Of a stretch of DNA of 64,000 nt, positions 4,239-45,950 are shown piece by piece. The stretch lies in the NCBI GenBank assembly GCA_965649765.1, contig OZ287754.1, forward strand, positions 7,750,001 to 7,814,000. The letters are read 5' to 3'. The notes beneath the pieces were generated by a model. It did not search any database, had not been told where the DNA came from, and was given only the letters and a program-made list of their open reading frames with translations. The translations under genes and the position numbers were made by a program. Source of the stretch: Bispira polyomma. Lineage: Eukaryota. Position 1 is the first letter of the stretch, and each line of letters begins with the position of its first letter.

Positions 4239-4879
4239 CTGTCAAAAGATAAAAGTTTAATAAAGAGGTTTCACATTAACCTACTTAAAGAACTTGCAAA
4301 GAATTGCCATATATGGGGGACCTTTTTGTCTATAGTATACTGTGGTGTGTGTTTTAGTGACTCCAGCTATTTGTATTAACACATTACCCGATCAATTCCT
4401 TCAGTTCCTGGCGATACTTTTCTCTAGGGGGGCTAAAAGGGTTGGGATATGTGTGTGTATATATATATTAGCACAATTGCAAACCTTAACAATAAACACT
4501 GGAGGAGAAAGGGGGCTCTAGAGAGAAGAGGGGTCAATAATTACGGGTGCATAAAGAAGTCCCCACTAGAAGTCCCACAAGGAGAAGTCCCTATCATCCT
4601 AATTGAGAGGAAGAAGTCCCTATCAATTTTGATTTTTTTGGAATTTTATTTAAAGAACAATTATTAGCAAAAGACAATGAATATACATTAATACTTATTA
4701 ATATTTTTTTCTCACACAATTAACACAGTGAATGTGCATTAAAGAAGAGTCCTTGAAAGTTTCAATTAAAAAATTATTACCTAAAAAAGTAACTTAAGCC
4801 AGTGTAACTTTTAACAGTGCCAAGTAAATATGTAAAGTAAGCCTACGTTTCCTTTCAGCACATTCCGACGTCGGCAGAT

Positions 4880-5314
4880 TTAAAGGTGTCCGATCCGATC
4901 CAACGTTGTGCTTCTTTGCATATATACTTTGATATATACTCAAGATTAGTCGGATATTGCTTTTAAAAATGGCAGGAGAAAGCCTATTTTATTGTGATTA
5001 CTGTGCTTCTTTTCCTACCAAAAGCCGTTGAGAAACAGCTTATTTATTTACAGTTAAATAAGGGTAACAATATTTACTTCCTTGTTTGTAAGTTGTGACG
5101 TAGCAGCAAAACTGACGTCACTATGACGTTGCTATGACGTACCATTCACAGTAGAAGCGAAAGTTAAATGGGGGACCCGTCTCATCTGCATCTATAAACT
5201 TAAATATCTGAGCCGTTTCTTAACAGATTTTGGTGAAAAAAAAGCACAGTAAGTACAATAAAATAAGTTTTCTCATACTTTTTTTCAAAGTCAAAATCTG
5301 ACGAATATTAAGTA
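4880..5314. mobile_element. Foldback non-autonomous DNA element (ttaaagg start, Kolobok-like), interrupted by a MITE at 5315
   Basis: gagaaagcctattttattgtgattactgtgct (~4976) is mirrored by agcacagtaagtacaataaaataagttttctc (~5243); central tgacgt(c/t/a) repeats; gatccgat at ~4892 mirrored by atcggatc at ~5932. Confidence 0.5.
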
Positions 5315-5315
5315 T

Positions 5316-5928
5316 ACAGCGGGGGGGGGGGGGGGGCAGCAATTCGTGGTGGACAGCATTTCGCCATAAATATGGTTATTACACCCAATCACTGTATGAA
5401 ATTAATTTTAAAGGAATTATTTTCGCATTATAATATCCATATAACCTACATATTCCTACACCACAAATATATAAAATATTGTCTGCCTAAAGTACCAACA
5501 CAGCTAAATAAACAGTGGTACTGCCCAAAATTTGAGGTTGATTATTAGACGGTACTAATGATTGGCTATTGGGCTGTATTGCGGTTTCTTTTCTGTTTCT
5601 CATATTATCTATCGTTCACATAAACTATTTTATAACATAATATATTATTGTTAATAAAACTTATTGGTAATATTTTAATCTAAATATTTACTATTGTTTG
5701 AAAATGGCGAAATGCTGTCCACTTTTTAATCAATATTACACAGTGACTTTGCTTTCTAACTTGTGGTTAAAATTCATCAGGAGTACCTTTATGTATCTGG
5801 ATACGAGTCAGATTTGTATGCAATGGAATGACCTCTACAAATTACCAGTGAATTGCCTTAACATTGTTTCTTTTTGCTCATATTTGTCAAATTTCCGTAA
5901 ATTTCGAACGAGTCGCTGTCCCCCCCTG
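5316..5928. mobile_element. MITE with cag(G)n termini at a TA site
   Basis: tacagcggg...gggcagcaattcgt versus acgagtcgctgtccccccctgta; TA on both sides. Confidence 0.6.
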
Positions 5929-6586
5929 TATATCGGATCAGTTCCCCGTGGTTGAGGGAAAGTTGGTTCTATAAGAAACCAAAGACTAAACTTGCCTTAT
6001 TCAACACAGTAAAAGAATTGCGGATATATTTTATTAGTATCTAGCATTGTTACATCTACAAGTATTATATACAGTTTATGACTCTAAGGTAGGGGCATAA
6101 GGTCAACTTAAACTCAGCAGTATAACTGAGGTGAACATAAGGTCACCTTAAATTAAGAGAAAGGTACGGTTGACTTAAGGTCACCTTAAAAGCAGAAATT
6201 CAGAGGGCCTAAAGGTGGCCCTAAATTAATTTTAAGAATAGCAACCTGTGTCTGCAAGGTATGATGATTAAGGGCACCATTAAGTGACCCTAACTTTACT
6301 TTTAGATTTTATTAAAGCATACCTTGAGTTTGAGTTAGTCTGGAAGTTGAGGGTACCAAATGGTAGCCCTAACTTGAGTTTACTGCTGATTTACAGCGTA
6401 CTATAAAGGTTGCAAATTGATTTGAAATAAGATATGTAAGAGTACATAATGTACTGAGATATATGTTGACCTTATGACCCAGGACAGTGGGAATTGTGAA
6501 CTGTCCAGTATGCATTTGTTATACATTAACATTTATATATTTATTTGACAGGTGAGCCATAGATGCCAGACCACCAAACACCAGAG

Positions 6587-31894: not shown

Positions 31895-34001
31895 GCAATG
31901 GTTCCTCTGAAATTTTTACTCTTGCACCCAGAGAGCTTAAACCCAGAATGAAGGCTGGGGGCTTTTTAGGACCCCAGAGGGAATTTTTTGGCGGGAAAAA
32001 GTATTGACCCCAGCTACCAGGTAGTGAACCTTTTTAATTGGTATTGCTAGCAAGGGTGACAAGTTTGTTAGCCTACAGTGGCCCAAATGAATGACACTTT
32101 GACAGGGTGACAAGCTGGGGAGGTAAACCTGTTGTGATTTGTTTGTTATAATACTAAACCCAGTAAACTGATCCCCTGATGCTACTCACCGTACGCAATC
32201 AAAACATTGTTATAAATGAGTAAAATCCAGTAAATCACATTATATATTTTTTTTTTTTTTTTTTTTTTTGAACTAACATCAGCCTCAGAAACACCTTCAG
32301 TGATTTTTTTTTTGTGTGTCCTGGATTTCTCTCCATCTCTACTAGAGTAAGGAATCTAAAATTCGCCACTCTATCTGAAATTCGCCACCCAGAAAATGTT
32401 GTGTTTTTGGGGTAGAATTGTGAGTAATATTTCCTCAAATTGAGATTTTTGTGACTACTTTGCCTTACTTACTAATTGCTGTTATTTTTTGCCCAGTTTA
32501 TATTGATTTTGCTTAAATTTTAGGGGGTGGCAAATTTGAGATACAGCGGCAGATTTTTTAGAATTCTCTCCATTTAGTGACAGAATAGAAGCACCAATAA
32601 ACTGGCGCCTGATGAAAAGCAACTGCAGAAATGTCATTACAAAAATCCACGAGTATTATGGGAATCTTTATCAGTAGTTTGGATTCAGCTAGCCATAAAA
32701 GTGGAAATTTGTTTTCCTGAGAGGTTAATTAAGCTATAGTTTGGTTAATGAGACTGATTACTCCAATGAAAACTCTAAAATAAAAAATATTTAAATTATA
32801 ATATATTCAAAAAGAGTGAAAATTAATTCCTGTGAAATCTTTAAAATTGTAAATGAGAGATTTTTTTTAACAAGCTAAAATTTCCAACTTTACTGTATTT
32901 TACATTTGCTTATATTTGTCCTACAGAGCATTCAGTTGATGAATTGTATCTCAACGGTTTGAATGAAGGTTCTATACACCCTTTCCTTATTTTCTTTAGA
33001 CTTTTACCCCTTTAGTTCACAAAGGGTATGTGTACAGATATAAAAAAATACTGCTTCTTTGATACCGAAAACATGTATTTAACATTTTGTCCCTAAACTA
33101 CACCCCTCAGCCCACCCCTCTCTGTACCTTTCCGATCATCAAAGAAGTGTATCCATGGTATGCCAACAACAAGAAGAGAAATTGTTTTCATTGGCATATT
33201 TGTTTTTCTTCACCGTCTTCAAACTAGCACATGTATTTCCATAAGTCTAAAGATTATTTAAGTGAAAATTAGATTTCTTTATACAGTTTCATCAGCCATT
33301 GAATATTTTCAACTACATATTTGATTTCCTTGCTAAAAGCTCTATTAAAATGAATGGTCACATGTCTAGGTTACTCCTATTGACAAGGAAATCCACATTT
33401 GTGGTATTTGAGTTTTAGAACTCAGTCAGATTTAGCACAACTTTAAGTGCTTTGATGGGCATATGGCCCCTGGGAATACAAAAACTGGCCCCTGGGAAAC
33501 TGGCTACTGGGCATAGAGAAATTTTCAGTTGATATTGCTTATAGTTCAGTTGGTACAGTGATGTGTCAGACTATTGAGGACATAGCTGTGAAACAGCAGT
33601 TCAGAGGGGACATAGAACCTCTATTATGTGAACATATTGTTAGGTCAAGATTTTGTTTGGAGAATAGAAGGTTTGTAAAATAGAAAAGAGGTACTTTAGT
33701 ATCAAACTATAGGATAACTTGTAGAGTGACTTTTCATGTATTGGAAAGTTTGGATAAATATATTTGGTGGTGGGGGGGGGGGTGAAGAAAAGACACTGCA
33801 AGGGAAGGGGAATAGGGATGAGGGACAAAGAATCAGGAGGAATTGGCTACCAACCATGATGAATTTCAGGTTTGACAGCATTTGTGATGAAAAATCATAA
33901 GGTACCACAAGTTGAGCTATGCAGGCCAGTTGTGGCAAAACATAATTCTTTCATGTGCTTCATTGTAACGTGAATCTAGCAGCCAACAATAAGTAACAAT
34001 T

Positions 34002-34173
34002 ACAGTAAAATCTCTATTATCTGAACATGTTGGCTGAGTAAGATTTTGATTTGGATAATGGAAGGTTTATAAAATAGAAGAGGTAGTGTAAAATAGGAAA
34101 ATGGTTATTGGGGAGAACAAAACTATGTTCAAATATTTGGACAATAGAAGTTTGGATAATAGAGGTTCTACTG
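34002..34173. mobile_element. pogo/Tigger-type MITE family C (cagtagaacctctattatc TIR); also 38129-38314, 61018-61196, partial at 24885 and 33613
   Basis: tacagta(g/a)aa(c/t)ctctattatc ... gataatagaggttctactgta. Confidence 0.75.
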
Positions 34174-34875
34174 TATTACAAACTTTTGTTTGGCATTTAG
34201 ATCTACATAGGAAAGAGTCCACAAATGGTTAAAACTAGTGGATCACTGAAGATTGCGGACATATTGCTTCACTGGTCAGGGTTAGTAGGTATTTGTAGCA
34301 ATTATTTTAAACATCTTTGGTTATAATGTGATGGCCAGATTTATTGGTGCAGAGAACATGTACTGGAAACCATACAACATGCAGTCTCTGTGTCTGACCT
34401 TGTTTTGACCTTGGTGAGCAAAGCTAGTTCTTGTTATTAAATAATTTTATTTTAAAATAATTTTCTACTGCTAGAGAAATTATATACAACACCAGTTTAA
34501 ATATTCTTATATACACACAAAGTTAAGGTGGCCTCAATCTCTTGAGGTCACCTCAACTTAGACACCAGGTTATAGTGATTACAGTTTGTTTAATTTTTTG
34601 TGTAGGGTGACCTTTAGCTTTTTAAGGTGACCCTAAGTGATTAAGTTTTCTGAATATTGTAAGGTTACCTTATATATTTAAGGTGACCTCAGTTGGTTTA
34701 GATTTTGAACCTTGGTTTTAATTGAGTTGAATTATATGGGTTTTAATTTTAAAAGTTAACCTGTTGCCAATTTTTCAGTTATTGTGTTACTGTTTACATA
34801 TAACACATGTGAATGGATGCTGTCATACTACATGAATCCATTGTACTATATTTAGTTACTATATTACTTGTTAAT

Positions 34876-35848: not shown

Positions 35849-37666
35849 TTAGATGATCTCAAAATATTCCTTTTGCTCAGCCTCAAACTCCTCTGGGATG
35901 AATTCAGTCATCTGATGTTTCCCAAACTTTGCTAGCTCCACTGACCTCTTCTCTAAAATAAACCATTCAATGAATTCCTGCCCCAAAGTTTCTACCATGA
36001 CATCATCAGCTTCTAGGGCATTGATGGCTTCCTCCAGGGTGTATGGTATAGGACAATCTGGTTTGACTCCACAAGGAGGAGGCTCTATCTTCTTCCTAAT
36101 ACCATCAACTCCAGCAGCGACAGTTGCAGCAAGAACCAGATAGACATTGGAAGCACCACTGGGTACTCTATTCTCCATGTATGTGGCTTTCTCACTGGTA
36201 CTTTTCACACGCAAAGACACAAATCGATTGTCGTAGTCCCAATCTTTGTGGTCCGATCCAATACTTGCCCAGTTTAGATATGTGGTCTGGTTCATTGGGA
36301 TCATAGAAAGCATTTCGGTTGGTCTCAGTATCCCATAAACTCTGATTGAAATGAGTACCACAGGATGCATCCCCACCAGCAAACGGTTTGGACATGAACA
36401 CGGCTGTAATCCCAAACATTTTGGCTATTTCTTTCACTCCAGTTTTAAAGCGGAACATGTTATCAGCTGCTTCTATGCCAAACCTTGGCTGAAATACAAA
36501 CTCCACCTGCCCTGGGGAGTTTTCGATATGCATGGATTCAGACTCAATGCCGCACTTGGAAAGATTGCTATCCAAGGTCAGCATCAGGTCCTCAATATCA
36601 CTAAACCTCAGCTGAGTACAGTAGTCTGTTCCATCAAACAATGGCTTACCATCTTTCACAAAAAGAAATTCAGCCTCACAGGCAAACATAAGCTTCAAGT
36701 TCATACTCTTTAGCACATTCAGCTGTTTTCTGGCTACATATCTGGGACAAGCCTCCTGTATGCTACCATCTGGCCATGTGGTCTCACACAGGATTTCTCC
36801 AATCTTGAATTTGTCTGTACCTGCCCAGGGAAGAAGGACTATCTGCTGACAGGCTGGTTTGGCATAGATATTACCGTAATTGCTCTCCTTGACACGCCTA
36901 GTGTTAGTTATTTCTGACCTTGGTCCTAACACCACATTACCTGTAACAAAAGCATGATTTTAATTAGAAACCAAAAATGATGACACATTTAGCATGTAGG
37001 ATACATATGTTTTAACTGCCACTGTGGTGTTAGTATGCAACACATGCTTAAAAATGTAGAGTATCTGGGTTCAATGCCAGCATGGGTACCAGGTACCAAG
37101 TACAGACTAATAAATAGTCGCTGGAATGATCACATAAAATGGCGGTTTTGTATCATTGAGTCCCATTTCAAGTGCAAGGCTAATGAACCTGGGGGACATT
37201 GACAAATGGTCATCCTTAAGCCCTAAGTATTCATTTAAGGGTACAATTGTTTCTGGTTGGCTATGAATGGGCAATCAGTTAGGTAAAGTAGTGCTTTGAT
37301 ATCAGACAACTAAATTTACATATGAAATAAGAATTAACCACCAGATTAAGTTACATATTTCCATACATGCAGTATATTCGGCAGTAAATAACATTTACAT
37401 CATGTAGCAAAGCAGCAGTAAACTAGATTTTTTGATAATGCCTAGGAATTTACTTCGCATATATTTTTTAAACATACCTTACAAAAGCTGAACAAATCAA
37501 AAAATCAACATCTTCCATCATCTAACATGCTGTCAGCATGGCGAGCCGGAATTATCTTTCCTCTGGCAATTCCATGAATGTCGGACCATGTCATTCGTAA
37601 ATAATCAAATGTCTTAGCTTGTTGTTTCATTTGATCAACATCTAATTCTGGTAAAGATAGAGCCAT
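35849..37666 (-). pseudogene. GS-I/lengsin-like copy 3 (pseudogene)
   Basis: first exon 37666-~37513 with the donor removed by a ~90-nt deletion; last exon 36940-35849 with a frameshifting ~89-nt deletion at ~36253 that removes NCYRRL. Confidence 0.93.
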
Positions 37667-39036
37667 ATTGGCTATCCTGCAGATCTGAAACAAGGGAGAA
37701 TAATAACATTTACCATGATAATAATCAATATGTCTATAACCTCCACGTGAAATTTCTTTTATCCATCCATATACTTGTACTGTATTTTGCATTGTTAACG
37801 TGCTCTATTGATGCGAGTTATTTTCTAAGGCACAAGAACAGAATCCCATAAACATAGCCACGGTCATAAGGAAGGATGAGGGGTTGTTCAGGTAGGGTAT
37901 ATTACAGAAAAATAAAAAATAAAAATAAGTGTTTTTAGTAATCTAATCTCAACAGGTAGACTTTTACATATTATAGGGGCATCAATTGAGAAAGCTCTAG
38001 ATCCAGCCGTCTTGGCAGGTTTTACAGAGGAAACAGAAAATCCCAAAACTTGAAGAAATATCGCTTGAGATGCCACTTGTCAAAGATTCTCAGGCAGATC
38101 AATAACTATCACTGACAAAAGTTTAATACAGTAGAACCTTTATTATCTGAACATGTTGAGAAAGCAAACTTTTGTTCAGATAATAGAAGCCTCACAAAAT
38201 AGAAGAGGCATTTCTGTATAAAACAACAGGTAAACATGAATTTCGGAGAGCGAAAATGTGATCATAAAATTGAATATTCGGTTAACAGAAGTTCAGATAA
38301 TAGTGGTTCTACTGTATTGAAAATTCTTACGAAAATGAAGGGGAAAGAAACTGTATATCATAGCTGTAATAGAACGGACAAATTTATCAAAATCAATAAA
38401 TTAACCCCTTGACCACCATGTCTGTTGCCTAGTAGTCGATGGCCATTTTTATTCACAAGTGCCATGTCCGTCGGCCAGCAGTCGACGGTTTATAATATTA
38501 TTTTATAGCTCCCTATCCCTGAAATCTATGTGATACAGTGCTTTTAACATAAAGATAAATATTTGTTTTAATTTGTACTGCCATGAAAGTGTATCAAAGT
38601 ATTCTCACTCGGTATTGTAGAATTATTCTCCATTGGTGGAGAAGGGGTTATGCCGGTTTAAGTGCAATCAATCCATTTCAAGTACCTAAATTTCGTTTTA
38701 TAAACCATACTTTTATTACCTACTTGGGATATCTTTGAGATATTATACATTTTAAGACAACTACGACACTTGGGTAAAATGTGTACACATGCTATTAAGT
38801 AGGTTAAAATGCAAAGCCTAAATGAAGACCCAGTACCTTAGAAAATAAAGTTTATGGTTGACCTAACAGTTGCAAAATTATAAAAAGCAAGATTCCTATT
38901 TACAGTATTGTTTTTACAGAGACTACATACATGTACATTACTTCCAGCTATGAATTACTGGCTTTATCAATAACTCAGGCGATACCACCTATCTAACACA
39001 AAGACAACCATTTTTTTATTTTCTGAGGGCACTACC

Positions 39037-39792
39037 ATGTCTACTAGTGTTAGCCAGGACACACTTGTTACTGCCATTGGCACCCTTGGTGTAGAATCCG
39101 CCACCACATTAACTGGAATGGACACTCCAATTCCAACTTCTACCATCAGTGATGAGACTTTGCAGCTACTACAGCAAACTTCTATGTCTCTAAACCCAAA
39201 AAAGCCTAACCAAAATGCTCAACCAGCAAAAAGGAAGAGAATGGAGTCCACAGAAGACAATGACAGAGCCAACTATCCTGCTGAAAGCAAAATGCTTTAT
39301 CTGAAAACAAAAACACTCCACAGAAGAAAATTAAGCTTAGCTACCAACATTCACCAGATTAAGATCAATTTAACCAAGGACAAATTTCCAATACAGTGTG
39401 ACTTCAACTGCGAAGCCCCACTTAATAGAGATGAATGTTTTAAAGCTGAATGGGAGAACATCACTTCCCAATATAAAAGGACATTAACTAACCTGTTGGT
39501 TGATGACATGACCGCTAAATATCAATCAAGAAAAGCAGACATTCAAACATACCTGGTCCAATTAGAGACAATACTCAATCAACACCAATTCGAGGAAATT
39601 AAAACCTTCCTCAGTGATAGATATAAAGCAGCTGCATCCACAGCAATGGGTAAAGCTTCAAACAAATTTGAGGAGAGACAACCACAACAAAGAAAACCCA
39701 TGACAAGAAAACAGTCCATGGGCAGAAGAAACAAATCAAACAACCAAAATAGCCAGTTCAAAAAAATCTTGGTTTCCTTATTAAAGATTTAG
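39037..39792 (+). CDS. PLE upstream ORF (251 aa, open, helical/basic)
   Basis: ATG in accATG context ~60 nt from the element 5' end; F...W..I...Y...L..LL pattern reminiscent of PLE N-terminal regions; basic tail. Confidence 0.6.
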   Translation: MSTSVSQDTLVTAIGTLGVESATTLTGMDTPIPTSTISDETLQLLQQTSMSLNPKKPNQNAQPAKRKRMESTEDNDRANYPAESKMLYLKTKTLHRRKLSLATNIHQIKINLTKDKFPIQCDFNCEAPLNRDECFKAEWENITSQYKRTLTNLLVDDMTAKYQSRKADIQTYLVQLETILNQHQFEEIKTFLSDRYKAAASTAMGKASNKFEERQPQQRKPMTRKQSMGRRNKSNNQNSQFKKILVSLLKI

Positions 39793-39923
39793 TAAACACA
39801 TTTTGTTTGGCCTACCTCTCCTTCAGCTATAGTACAATGAAGGTATAAAAAACATATACCTATTGTTTTGCTGCTTGCCGGAGCCTTATTCTACACCTCA
39901 GGCACCTTGGCTTTAATCTAAAG

Positions 39924-41149
39924 GTAATAACTTAAATAGCCTAATTGGACACAATGTCATCAACATCTCTGACTTTAGTATCTCCAACACTCAGCTTTAA
40001 GCTTTCCAAAAAGGACTCACCTTCTGTCCCACTCCAGGTCCCACCAATAAGGCCCTGATTTGAAATGATTTCAAAGACTTCCACAGACGTCTTATACCTA
40101 AACATCATTTTTACAATGACAACCAACTACTTAGCAATGAAGACCAGGAATAAGTGAAATTCTTAGCTAATAACCTTGAAGATAACTTAAACCCATATAA
40201 ACACATCCACTCGGGTTTTACACCAAAAAGTATATGGAAACCAAGCAACACCCTCATTTCACTAAATGTGTTCAAATATAACTTATTGTTCTGCAAAAAA
40301 AAGAAAAATAGAAACAGAACATCCAACCTCACAAAAGAACATTTTCAAGGCCTCAAAGAACAAGCTGATAACCCAGAAATAATTATCAAAAAAAGCTGAC
40401 AAGGGGTCAGCAGTAATAGTAATGAACACCAGTGACTACCTACAAGAGGGATACAGACAATTAATGGATCCCCAATTCTATACACAATTAGATCATAACC
40501 CCACATCTGAAGTAAATGACAAAATCACTAAAACACTCAGAGCTATGAAAAACAAAGGTCTAATAATCGAAAAACACTTTGACTATCTAGTACCAAAAGA
40601 TTGTGAAGAAGGTCACTTCTACTTACTACCAAAAATCCACAAAAAGAACATACCAGGTAGGCCAATCTGCAGCTCAGTCAAACACCCCACAACCAACATC
40701 AGTAAATTTGTGGATGCACACATAAAAGATTATGTTCCAAAAACACCCTCATATATAAGGGACACTTAGGATTTTATCAGTAAGATCAAAGAGATAGGAC
40801 CAATACCTGAAGGAGCCATCATTGCCACCCTATATGTCACTTCTCTATACACCAACATTCCTAATCAGGAAGGGATAATTGCAGTTACTCAGTAAGGATC
40901 CAAGCGAAAATAAAATAGCCAACTACTTACTAAATCTATTAAAATTAGTACTACATAATATGTACTTCGAATTTAATGATAATTTCTTCATTCAAATTGG
41001 GGTCACTGTAATGGGCACATCATTAGCACCAAATTATGCTAATATCTTTTTAGATAAATTTGAACGTAAAGCCCTTGATAACTATCCCCAAAAACCCTTA
41101 ATATGGAAAAGATTCATTGATGATATTTTCCTTATATGGACACATGGAA
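39924..41149 (+). pseudogene. Penelope-type reverse transcriptase, degenerate and truncated after motif C
   Basis: NVINIS...KGLTFCPTP, IIIKK(A)DKG, FYLLPKIHK..PGRPI, YIRDT, SLYTNIP, MGTSLAPNYANIF, WKRFIDDIF; stops and frameshifts; no GIY-YIG domain seen. Confidence 0.9.
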
Positions 41150-42222
41150 ATATTACCGAGACCGTCACATTAGGAATATCCACATGATGCAGAGTGTTAA
41201 TTGTGTGTTATGCTCAAAATCCTACACAAGAGCCAGTGATCTTAAAAAGCACCACATGCAACACCATCAGACTACTACATCTGATGGTATGGACTCATCC
41301 AACAACATCTTGAGCCCCATAGAAGCATCCACTTCTACTAACCATGAGGATCAACAAGTATCCCAAAACATCCCACAGGATTACTTTGGTCTGCTTGAGT
41401 CACTGGAAGGGACTGCACAAACTGAAGTAGGTAACATTCAGCCTCTAGCAACAACAGCCAATATTTGTACCCAAACTAAGAAAACAAAACTTGCTGCTCA
41501 AAGAGTCTACACACACAATAACACAAATAACCCAATCATCTGCCAATTAGACAAGGCTACCAACACAGAGCCTCTCATTGTCCTAACTCCAGATGAAATA
41601 AGTAAACTATCATGTGGAGTCACTCTGGCTACATTCAAACAGAACCTCGAAATTTTTATCACAACCAATAATTCTGGACTGATTAAACCTTGTGCAAAAA
41701 ACAAGAATATGATCAAATCCCAAGTACCCCTAAAAAAAAAAGAGTAGCATGGGATTCTACTAACATAATAGTATTATACAAGAAAGCATTCAGGACAAAA
41801 AAGCTGTCACACAAAAAGCTTTAGACCAAAAACATGGGGACACACACCCCCTCAAAATACCAAAACCTAATCTTAATAGGCTAGTGGAGAGATATTTCCC
41901 AAATGAAGCGAATAAGAGAAAATCAAGCCTAAATTCGCCCATATACCCAGTCAACATACTGAACAAATACCCACTAACAAACCCACCTACACCTGGCACC
42001 AAATTAGCACCCAGTACTGAAAAACAACAACAGGACACACCTAAAAAAACTTTGACAGTCAATACTGATTGGCTGAAAATGATAGAGGCTGAATTAAGCC
42101 CTGACATTTGTGTAGCCCTTTCCAGTGACTCAGAAGAGGAACCACTGGGCACCAGCCCTGACAAAGTCGACATAGATTTCAGCAAAAAGTTACATGTTCT
42201 GTTTGGTGACAATTCACCTTAA
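41150..42222 (+). pseudogene. C2H2 zinc-finger ORF inside the PLE (5'-truncated, frameshifted)
   Basis: ...YYRDRHIRNIH (end of one finger) then CVLCSKSYTRASDLKKHHMQHH, followed by a low-complexity T/S/P/K-rich region. Confidence 0.6.
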
Positions 42223-42863
42223 CTTATTTTAAAAAGGTCTGGTAATATAAATTATATGTATATTTATTTATGAAAAGAAATATATTCATCCCTGATATTA
42301 AATATAGACATAAATAACTATGTTCGACCTACAATATAAATTCAGCAGATTCTTACTTGTTATGTGATATTATGCCATATACAATGTTATAAAATGTAAC
42401 CCTTTGTCAGAATAAAATCTCCAACATATAAGTAATCTATTAGATCTCTATATGTTTACTACTATACACAACATCACTCGGGGATTACTAAAAGGGTTTC
42501 TAACACAACTAAACTTATTGATGGAGATAATACATACAGTTAGTAACAATATCCCCATCAATCACTGAAATCTGATTTTAGATTTTTATTACCTACACAT
42601 CATATAACCTCCCTAACTCATTAGGGGGCAATGGGTCTGAGTGAAATACAAGCATGTAACCATGGTAACCTACCTTAAGGCCATAAAATATCCCCACTAC
42701 CTACAGGGAATTCACACTATAGCAAATATTAGAGATTTTTGAACATAAAAACCTATATCCAGTAAATAGCCATAAACTGATTTGCAAGAGCTAGCCGGAG
42801 CTAAAGATTGCACCTTAAGGAGCAGTACCTTGCTGGAGCCAAATTATGCACCTCAAGGAGTCA

Positions 42864-42952
42864 GTGATAACATACATCAGCCTCTGATGAGACCTTAAAT
42901 CCATAAGGTCGAAATATATAGAAACAATAACTTATATATCAGGCCATATCAC
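42864..42952 (+). ncRNA. Type I hammerhead ribozyme
   Basis: stem I gcct/aggc plus distal gtgata/tatcac; CUGAUGA 42884-42890; stem II gacctta/taaggtc; GAAA 42911-42914; stem III tatata/tatata; AUC cleavage triplet ending at 42940. Confidence 0.93.
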
Positions 42953-45657
42953 CTATCTAACACAAAGACAACCATTTTTCATCAATAACTCACCTCTCAA
43001 ATAGAATTCTTTTTCCTCTAGATGCTTATCCCCTTTAAATATTATATATAAAAATCCAAATACAAATTTACTGTCAACCAGTTCACCAAATGTGTGGGAC
43101 CAAATATTCTTTACTAAGTCTTCCTTTTGTATACACACCTCTATACCTGGAGGTAGAAGCATTTATCAAATTATGATCCTAATTTAAGCATATATTGGAC
43201 TTTAAACCTCCATAAATCAGTTTCCAACATTTTTTTACTGTTAGTAGATCAACTAATAGGTGCAGCATTTATTTATCATTCCACCAAATATTATGCCCAT
43301 GTTATGTATACAAATATTTAACATGTTGTTTTTTTTTCCTTCTGTCATTGGGCTAAACCCAACGATCAAACTATGGCAAGTGACAATGTGAACTCTTCAT
43401 TAATAGACGGCTTGCATTTTTTAATATTTTATCAAATATGGGCATTTTGTTTAATACTTGTGGAAGCAGGAGCTCCGGGGTGGTATTCACATTGTCTTCA
43501 ATCTAGGACAAAAGTATACTAGATCTAAGACAAAGTCTAGGCTTAGCGTTTTTTGTGAATACCACCCCTGGTTTGGACAAACAATATTGGCAATTCAGTA
43601 AAATAGGAAATATTGTATATCACAATGAAAAAAGAAAGGCAAAAAAAAGAGGACAAAAACATGTGTATTCTAAATCTACTATTTTTAAACTAGTGTTTCT
43701 GTCTGACTGAGGCTTGACTTCATATTATTACTGCACACACACGCATGTACTTACACATGTTTATAAGTAGTTTAAGGGTGTGTGTGTGTGGGGGGGGGGG
43801 GGGGGCTGGCTTGTATAATTGTAGTTTACGTGTAGATGGGTAGGCTGTAAACAAGTCAGAAATTCAAGTGTTGTTCCTTCACGCAAGGATGGCATCATTG
43901 GTGACATATATTTAATTATTAAATATACCATAGAGGTGTAAATTTTACCCTGTAAAATTTTCACCCAAGTTTTACACAATGTTTTAAAGATGTTTACCAG
44001 AATTAATTTTCTCACTACTGCTAAGTTTTCAGATCACATTTTCACTGAGGGAATTAATTGGTTTTTTTTTTACTATTCAGTTTAATTTTTTGGCGAAAAT
44101 ATAGTAAACATTTATTCTCAGGTAAAAATGTCCGCACATATACAGTATATGTGTACATCAATATATGCATATACCCATGTGCTATATTGTCCTGCTTTGT
44201 GAACAACCAAGATATACATACAAAGAGAGATAAAAAGCAGAATACTTTCAAAACCCATGTAATTGTTGACACATTTTCATCGATAGGCTATGTCATAATT
44301 ATCCTGGTAATTTATCTGGTCTAAAATGAGATAACCATATATTTATATATGTATTTTGCAGCAATTATAGACATTTTCTCTGATTTATGTCCTTTTTTCA
44401 CCCCGATAAAGTTTCCGTCTCACTTATTAATCCAGACATGCCTCCTTGCTATAAATGAGCAAAATCCAGTAAATCACAAATGTTTTTTTTGTTTGGAACT
44501 AACATCAGCATCAGAAACCACCTTCTATGGGTCTGATTTCTGCTTCTGTACTAAGGATAAAGAATAAAAAAATATGAAGCCCCCCTTGTACTAGAGCTTA
44601 AAAATTAATTAAAACAAGAGTTGTTTTTTTAAAAAAAAGATACAGGCATACAGGGTGAAATACATTAAAGTTGATATGCCTGCATCTGATAACAATACAT
44701 CTGACACATCCTCAGTTTGGACTGGTCGGTTGGTGCCAATCAATCCTTGCAAATCCTTGCAAATATTTTAAGATGGCGGCGCCCCTTTTTAAGAATGAAA
44801 ACAATATCAGGCTGCGCCTGATAAAAACAATTCTTCCATACAACCCCAATCAATAGGATCTAGGGACCTCAATTACTTCAGTGATTTCTTAGTGTCCTGG
44901 ATTTCTCTCCATCTCTAATAGAGTAAGGAATCTAAAATTTGCCACTATATCTGAAATTCGCCACCCAGAAAATGTGTTTTTTGGGTAGAATTGCAAGCGA
45001 TAATTACTAAACTTAAGATTTTTGTGACTATTTTGCCTTACTTACTATAATTGCAATTATTTTTCGCCCAGTTTTTATTTATTTGGCTTAAATTTTAGGG
45101 GGTGGCGATTTTTAGATACGGGCGGCGAATTTTATATTATTCTCCATCTACTAAAAGAATAGAAGTACCAATAAACTGACGCCTGATGAAAAGCGACTGC
45201 AGAACTGTCATTACAAAAATCCACCAGTATTATAGGAATCTTTATCTGTAATTTGGATTCAGCTAGCCGTAAAAGTGGAAATTATTTTTCCTGAGAAGTG
45301 AATTGAGCTATTGTTTTTGCTAAAGTGAGACTGACTACTGAAATAAACACTCAAAGTTAAATCAAAAAATTTAAATTATAACATTTTCAAAAAGAGTGAA
45401 AATTAATTCCTGTAAATTCTTCAAAATTGTTAATGAGCAAATTTTTTATCAAACTAAAATTTTTAAGTTTACTGTATTTTCCATTCGCTTATATTTGTCA
45501 TACAGAGCATTCTGTTGATGAATTGCATCTCAATGGTTAGAATGAGGGGCTCAATACACAGCTTTTCGGTATTTCATTTTACAATTTTAGTTCACATTGT
45601 GTGTGTACAGATATAAAAAATACTGCTTCTTTAATACCGAAATCTATATTTGACATT

Positions 45658-45780
45658 AGTAGTATAGGACAGTGAGAACCCCCCTCACCCCCCCCCCCCC
45701 CCCCAGACGGCGCAAATAGGGGCAGGAAGTGACGTATTTTTGGCATACCGGAAGAGACGGCATGCGCCTTTTTGGCGCAC
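45658..45780 (+). repeat. Maverick left TIR
   Basis: agtataggacagtgagaacccc...cggcgcaaataggggcaggaagtgacgt matches the reverse complement of 60362-60470. Confidence 0.9.
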
Positions 45781-45787
45781 TTCCAGT

Positions 45788-45950
45788 AGGTGCATACTAA
45801 ACGCCATCCAGGGGTATTCTATTACCAAATTTCCGGGGGTTGCACATTAAACGCCAGCCAGGGGTATCCTATTACCGGATTTCCGGGGGGTGTACACTAA
45901 ACCCCAGTCAGAGGTATTCTATTACCAGACTGGGTAGGTGTACATGAACA
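45788..45950 (+). repeat. Three ~52-bp subterminal direct repeats
   Basis: ggtgca(t/c)actaaacgcca.ccaggggtat(t)ctattacc..atttccggggg three times. Confidence 0.8.

Follow-up and report, generated by a model that had tools for sequence, protein, structure and literature searches.

Endonuclease-bearing (EN+) Penelope-like elements (PLEs) have been described as single-ORF elements (PMC8557442). Closest to the elements considered here are Neptune and Nematis, which the available part of the same account presents with one ORF, a C-terminal GIY-YIG endonuclease with CCHH, a CX4CxxC linker, a DKG motif and a hammerhead, and whose insertions, tandem as well as inverted, have a tail and a target duplication (PMC8557442). 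A killifish Neptune consensus comprises two ORFs of 420 and 2004 nt, of which ORF1 is unidentified (PMC12602865). Several co-oriented ORFs, a coiled-coil ORF and a hammerhead are found in the telomeric, endonuclease-less (EN-) Athena/Terminon elements, whose accessory enzymes, as far as the available part of PMC6431247 goes, do not include a C2H2 factor. Chlamys elements, PLEs of the green lineage with an N-terminal endonuclease, carry PHD, SAP or an upstream ORF with a CCHC zinc knuckle (PMC8557442).

The elements analysed here share every trait listed above for Neptune and Nematis except the single ORF, having instead a separate helical ORF and a C2H2 zinc-finger (ZnF) gene in a pseudo-LTR of 2-2.4 kb. 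They resemble Athena/Terminon elements in their co-oriented ORFs, coiled-coil ORF and hammerhead but are EN+ and dispersed, and resemble Chlamys elements in carrying additional domains but have C2H2 fingers in place of the knuckle. The accessible text of PMC8557442, including one supplement, does not mention C2H2, and no such ZnF gene appears in the available portions of PMC6431247, PMC3846280, PMC4209133 and bioRxiv 10.64898/2026.07.22.740005. More generally, no C2H2 ORF in Penelope elements was found in the literature searched, Repbase and Dfam being outside its scope; a Repbase entry may show the ORF. What appears to be new, as read from the sequence, is the presence of LC8-type TQT motifs in the ZnF tail, in a layout resembling that of ASCIZ, and of repeats whose middle base tracks residue 3 of finger 1.

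A deleted three-gene copy in the window

Positions 38975-42979 of the window (the whole stretch of DNA that was analysed, 64,000 nucleotides) are, judged by their sequence, a deleted copy of a three-gene Neptune-type PLE. Its features are as follows.

38966-38977, no strand: left target-site duplication, 12 bp, the last 3 nt overlapping the element start
38975-39015, + strand: 5' end of the element, starting at a predicted hammerhead cleavage site and identical in sequence to the 3' tail
39037-39792, + strand: helical ORF, 251 aa from ATG
39941-41147, + strand: RT, its ORF broken by stops and frameshifts and cut after WTHG
41147-41148, no strand: deletion junction, ~1.85 kb gone (1077 nt of RT-EN and 770 nt up to the ZnF junction)
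41148-42222, + strand: ZnF ORF remnant with finger-1 tail, finger 2, LC8-type motifs and low-complexity tail
42879-42944, + strand: hammerhead motif, GCCU-CUGAUGAG-stem II-CGAAA-stem III-AUC/AGGC, predicted cut after 42940
42939-42979, + strand: 3' tail and 3' end of the element, about 41 nt beyond the predicted cut
42981-42992, no strand: right target-site duplication

The 12-bp target duplication ATCAATAACTCA flanking the element (38966-38977 and 42981-42992) occurs twice more within the window. The two element ends share a 41-46-nt direct repeat that also ends other copies; the 46-nt repeat was considered as a target duplication and rejected, being element sequence, that is, the PLE tail. 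The tail described in PMC11167929 agrees with the ~41 nt that the window copy has past its second predicted cut. As originally predicted, the ZnF segment is co-oriented with the element (both on the + strand) and lies inside the target duplication, and the proposed A/C-rich bias agrees with the base skews over 39000-42000 (GC skew -0.18 to -0.31, AT skew +0.16 to +0.35).

The original prediction also had the RT stopping abruptly and continuing into a ZnF. This holds for the DNA: the RT frame at 40879-41187 contains WKRFIDDIFLIWTHG, similarity to family copies ends at 41147, and from 41148 the sequence is that of the ZnF ORF of other copies, entered in the middle of finger 1. It does not hold for the protein, since the ZnF frame (41124-41747) differs from that of the RT, and an RT-ZnF fusion protein was rejected on this ground. 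The predicted tail of one finger (41151-41183) and complete second finger (41202-41267; Pfam zf-C2H2, E 0.004) are present, whereas the "roughly 300 aa" of disordered sequence thought to follow turned out to comprise 159 aa, closed by the stop 41745-41747, and a further frame at 41764-42222. The remnant is frameshifted near 41730-41770 and again further on, so that small indels in the window copy account for the split frame. Two LC8-type motifs lie at 41457-41480 (NICTQTK) and 41547-41570 (DKATNTE). A long-range inverted repeat within the ZnF coding region (41396-41462 versus 42068-42132) is also found in L013 and, over 20 nt, in L054 of family B; it is absent from families D, E and H.

The deletion removed the RT thumb, the GIY-YIG domain, the promoter and half of finger 1, which bears out the proposed internal deletion and the absence of GIY-YIG from this copy. 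The window sits in a local duplicated segment, of which an identical copy is found 44 kb further along and another, 98% identical, at 88 kb. The latter (L016) has the same flanks as the window insertion and retains the RT thumb and endonuclease; as it represents the same insertion, the deletion in the window is secondary. In L012, L013 and L014 the endonuclease stop, a spacer and a two-finger ORF follow one another in this order, and the endonuclease of family A, to which the window copy belongs, is present in L012, L015, L016 and L070, being absent only from the window copy. Among the contigs of three sequencing runs (kind unstated) covering the window region, no listed piece bridges the junction at 41147/41148.

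Several observations concern the surroundings. The region copy 44 kb off (L017, G000:C7:7833117-7836379) is 100% identical, reflecting either recent duplication or assembly redundancy, and the spacer of the paralogous copy L016 holds a secondary insertion with nested inverted repeats (4666-6190). The element lies, within the tandemly duplicated segment, upstream of a glutamine-synthetase-like host gene (35849-37804, - strand; Pfam Gln-synt_C) that has a frameshift or intron near 36200-36400. A 200-bp MITE-like element with terminal inverted repeats is present in two copies (38122-38321 and about 34001-34187), and a 50-bp tandem repeat in three (45776-45927).

The parent unit and its families

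The proposed parent, a helical ORF, an RT with GIY-YIG, a ZnF ORF and a hammerhead, was found as entire units in family B, and its endonuclease in L016. Family B is a young sister of family A (RT ~70% identical at the DNA level), its copies being 97-99% alike. Whole units of 5.9 kb (L054, L061, L065) encode a ZnF protein of 392 aa, a 262-aa ORF and an RT-EN of about 800 aa in the order ZnF gene, hammerhead, helical ORF, RT-GIY-YIG; the junction from RT-EN into the ZnF ORF is preserved in L056. Among the 15 family B loci the ZnF ORF is whole in 4 and partial in 2. It is 5' in L054, L061 and L065 and 3' in L056 and the window. Three ORFs exist, as predicted, but the unit is circularly permuted, so that the ZnF gene is as much the first ORF as the third. 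It is part of the tandem period in the arrays L107, L108 and L116, and a 67-bp duplication surrounds L054.

A genome search with the 262-aa helical protein scored 146 places, of which 40 spread over identity levels were fetched; a ZnF ORF lay within 10 kb in 18 of them. Families C-K were defined from these loci and, with A and B, make 11, whose RTs are about 55-65% identical to that of sister family B. In every one of the 11 families sampled in this genome, the ZnF ORF occupies a fixed place between endonuclease stop and hammerhead, and relatives exist outside the genome; the segment is thus neither confined to the window copy nor a one-off capture. When the genome was searched with a ZnF protein from outside it, 161 matches were obtained, corresponding to >100 copies, many with open frames. 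The elements are dispersed over many contigs. The endonuclease end lay directly upstream in 13 of the 20 ZnF loci fetched, the hammerhead downstream in 15, and one or the other in 17, the remaining 3 having neither under the strict patterns used. None of the 20 had a helical ORF downstream, as expected for insertions terminating at the tail.

A second precise end, C/T-rich and without poly(A), is seen ~55 nt after the RT-EN stop in 14 of 16 family B rows (L051-L065). Several family A copies share it, and the ATTGG/CRE cluster adjoins. It might mark where a transcript ends or where an antisense template begins.

RT-endonuclease, helical ORF and hammerhead

Pfam RVT_1 and GIY-YIG were found in L064 and L107, the latter domain at residues 720-799, C-terminal and with CCHH. 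Between RT and endonuclease, families A, B and close relatives have CTRLGKCTYC, an instance of the linker motif CX2-5CxxC that marks Neptune/Nematis. Pseudo-LTR, tandem/inverted structure, tail and target duplication are those of EN+ PLEs; the single ORF of that class is not, a stop separating the helical ORF from the RT and the ZnF ORF standing apart. The C-terminal position of the endonuclease differs from the N-terminal one of Naiad/Chlamys, and its fusion to the RT, together with the dispersal of the copies, from the unfused, telomeric state of Athena/Terminon. In an RT tree from a quick search (94 rows, hits unnamed), a single branch (SH-aLRT 99) unites 11 genome rows with 16 outside proteins, the two being interleaved. 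A PDB sequence search with the RT-EN returned 0 matches. Taken together, we regard it as almost certain that the ZnF ORF is a conserved, real third gene in a Neptune-type lineage.

The ORF originally called ORF1 exists as a separate ORF; it appears, from a weak match, to correspond to the N-terminal domain that the canonical single ORF includes, here detached. For the family B protein long helices are predicted, residues 85-208 having a pLDDT of about 90, and there was neither a Pfam match nor, using the model, a Foldseek match at E<=0.001. Its profile matches the N-termini of 3 of 120 RT relatives (E 1e-6 to 4e-5), and hhalign against the protein P0186 is weak (probability 11.6, E 0.0026). 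The N-terminal domain of anole Poseidon is a predicted helical dimer arm (PMC11167929). The helical ORF is thus likely, on these profile matches, to be a split-off N-terminal domain of the canonical PLE protein. Many distant RT relatives likewise begin at the RT domain; with these and the two ORFs of killifish Neptune, the split is less surprising than the ZnF gene and may be more widespread. In the families inspected for this, a stop and 220-460 nt in varying frame separate the helical ORF from the KGLTF motif of the RT; a conserved intron joining the two was rejected, no common frame or donor being seen in these families. The two ORFs may still be spliced together, which would leave the unit with two genes.

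Core and stems of the hammerhead are conserved in the 11 families by alignment and folding; Rfam did not report the hammerhead and gave one chance lncRNA match. In family C the core reads CUGAAGAG in place of CUGAUGAG in all five copies shown (L101, L103, L104, L121, L122). Leaving aside L105, an inverted pair, 4 of the 10 other copies without an upstream hammerhead start at the AGGC of the predicted cut.

Conservation of the ZnF gene

The substitution pattern shows the ZnF gene to be under purifying selection within and between families: dN/dS is 0.12-0.36 in the 7 of 13 pairs with unsaturated dS, pS exceeds pN at p<0.005 in 13/13, and constraint covers both fingers and the post-finger region. 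Shifted reading frames gave no selection signal in the two pairs examined. For the 11 families, the groups (G,H), (E,F,I), (J,K) and GH+EFI are recovered with the ZnF as well as with the RT, and the two trees have no well-supported conflict.

A post-finger profile, from which the fingers were left out, found 25 matches among 1.84 billion proteins; 24 pair with ZnF proteins of this genome by BLAST at 29-49% identity, and 12 bear one or two fingers though the query had none. Some of these relatives form multi-copy clusters on megabase contigs. The best genome match to one of them, P0207, is 43%, so that other hosts likely carry the gene. Helical-ORF relatives (21) and RT-EN relatives occur in the same protein collection; with the 16 outside RTs interleaved among the genome families, these relatives make it likely, on sequence comparison, that the lineage lives in more than one host. 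Of 54 pattern matches in metagenome contigs, 0 were confirmed. In Pfam the fingers match only generic C2H2 families, neither an ASCIZ type nor another host-gene family appearing there, and in the ESM atlas only generic C2H2 clusters with low recognition. In family A, a predicted phase-2 intron of ~300 nt would link the ZnF ORF in frame with a short ATG-bearing exon (L012, 5999-6330; L013, 6050-6360).

Disordered tail and LC8-type motifs

The modelled ZnF protein consists of two fingers (pLDDT about 90), a short helix and a disordered tail (pLDDT<50 over 219 of 353 residues). Along the tail runs a spaced, conserved row of motifs, xQTD, G[T/V]NT, [K/R]xxQ and TSP or TNT, of which TSP corresponds to a known LC8 anchor. 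The pattern xQT[DE] occurs 8 times in 7 of 9 families, against a shuffle mean of 0.39. There are 2-5 LC8-type motifs overall, two in the window's family A and fewest in family J. The recognized LC8 anchor is a TQT that has Asp, Glu or Pro in position +2, and many TQT peptides fail to bind (PMC6607443); Asn and Ser anchors are also on record (PMC12057147). The host has six intronless, near-identical LC8 genes (L141-L146, 93-95% identical, on five contigs). N-terminal C2H2 fingers followed by a disordered stretch with multiple TQT-type anchors is the layout of ASCIZ/ATMIN (PMC5963919). The resemblance is one of layout only. ASCIZ/ATMIN is a single host gene with four fingers and 7-11 motifs (PMC5963919). 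We consider it rather likely from these motifs that the ZnF tail binds LC8; no transposon that exploits the LC8 hub appeared in the literature searched.

Candidate target repeats

GG[A/T/G]G[C/T] repeats precede both other ORFs, one group lying before the hammerhead and helical ORF (site 1) and the other before the RT start (site 2). In the window these are:

42788-42862, + strand: site 1, four GGAG[C/T] repeats and ACCT[C/T]A[A/G]G boxes upstream of the hammerhead, the predicted ZnF target
39878-39901, + strand: site 2, a CCGGAGC motif and an ACCTCAG box upstream of the RT ORF

Site 1 of the window has 4 repeats versus 0.35 in shuffles; enrichment at this site is weak in families E (p 0.11) and F (p 0.06), and shuffle p-values overstate, as the motif patterns were chosen after the alignment had been seen and the families are related. 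In most families the repeats of either site are followed, 10-15 nt on, by an ACCT[C/T]A[A/G] box (window 39893-39901 and 42812-42860). Many repeats also occur inverted and could form RNA stems. Upstream of the ZnF gene itself, in all eight families tested, lie not these repeats but ATTGG and a CRE cluster, TGACGT occurring 2-6 times within the 300 nt upstream (shuffle mean about 0.1).

The middle base of the repeats goes with residue 3 of finger 1. Families E, F, G, H and I have Asn there, and GGAG is the commonest site-1 motif in all five; C, D, J and K have Ser, and GGTG is commonest in all four, family C having been missed by the first repeat pattern and fitted on later inspection. In A and B, with Tyr, the commonest motif is GGAG or GGGG. 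The middle base of site 2 agrees with that of site 1 in the families seen. Among the selected fingers in Table 1 of PMC1920264, Asn is at position 3 in 5/6 of those for GAG and Ser in 3/4 of those for GTG, so that the direction of the covariation matches the C2H2 code; this code is loose, Asn and Ser at position 3 occurring for other triplets too (PMC1920264, Table 1). The Asn families form one clade (98/98), and the covariation therefore amounts to roughly two coupled changes instead of nine. Residue 6 of finger 2 fits the 5' base in part (Arg with G in 4/5, Lys mostly with C), and family A, with Gln at -1 and Tyr at 3, is a poor fit to GAG.

Proposed function and alternatives

On balance we favour a role for the ZnF gene as encoding a transcription factor of the element itself, which would target the repeats before the other two genes and would likely be dimerised by LC8. 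The CCAAT/CRE cluster directly after the endonuclease stop would drive the gene. Its product would recognise nnG-G[A/T]G repeats, both those of site 1, preceding the hammerhead and helical ORF, and those of site 2, preceding the RT ORF; two fingers by themselves would have to be paired across tandem sites, and LC8 at the 2-5 motifs could bring this about. The bound protein would then activate (the likelier case) or dampen both transposition genes, each family controlling its own, and transposition would proceed by the known PLE route, with a GIY-YIG nick and the RT starting in the A/C-rich tail. Foamy virus Tas/Bel1 is a retroelement-encoded DNA-binding activator with an internal promoter that acts on the element's own promoters; protein and element class are unrelated to those described here, and the analogy is functional only. 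We see evenly balanced prospects for the wider proposition of a PLE clade with its own sequence-specific, LC8-tuned two-finger factor, whose recognition helix has co-evolved with operator-like repeats to give each family group a private circuit.

Alternatively, the ZnF protein may act on element RNA or cDNA during transposition, in RNP assembly, LC8-linked transport or choice of the template end, the repeats being RNA stems or signals for the RT-EN. Such a role would suit the repeats in both orientations directly upstream of the hammerhead, the sub-threshold Pfam matches of 7 and 6 of 11 members to the RNA-binding types zf-met and zf-C2H2_jaz, respectively, and the identity of LC8 as a dynein subunit. 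However, the fingers have Arg/Lys-x-x-Asn/Ser-x-x-Arg helices typical of DNA readers, the site-2 repeats of G and H are direct, not inverted, and site 2, far from any end, yet switches base together with site 1. We therefore consider this role unlikely.

About equally unlikely is a counter-silencing or host-manipulating factor that soaks up LC8 or binds host loci, with shared descent behind the covariation. LC8 does dimerise the Piwi silencing complex in Drosophila (PMC7861614, PMC7919418), and each chain has several LC8-type motifs; that complex is known from Drosophila, however, and not from the host here, and the direction of the base switch follows the finger code. The ZnF proteins also lack a histone-H3-like start; such a start was looked for and rejected, 0 of the 25 outside proteins having one.

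PLEs are able to move host genes between their repeats (PMC3846280), and the family A gene has a predicted intron, as might a host zinc-finger gene captured once and carried as passive cargo of the pseudo-LTR. Purifying selection within and between families contradicts this, as do co-divergence of the ZnF with the RT, the >100 copies with many open frames, and the lack of any host-gene family match beyond generic C2H2; passive cargo is thus very improbable, although an ancient host origin of the gene is possible. That the ZnF stretch is a separate element inserting into PLEs, as the many copies holding only endonuclease end, ZnF gene and hammerhead might suggest, is the most improbable of all, given its fixed position and strand in 11 families, its place in the tandem period, its lack of ends or a duplication of its own, and the expectation of just such short copies from 5'-truncated PLE insertions ending at the tail.

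Implications

To our knowledge, little has been established on how EN+ PLEs are transcribed. If they have a regulator of their own whose target repeats can be named, as in the transcription-factor reading favoured here, the question could be tested with no more than a 30-bp probe and a two-finger domain. If true, this reading would provide a case of natural finger-site co-evolution inside a transposon and a possible use of the LC8 hub by one. The lineage has also placed >100 mobile C2H2 genes in one genome, which gene annotation would mistake for host factors.
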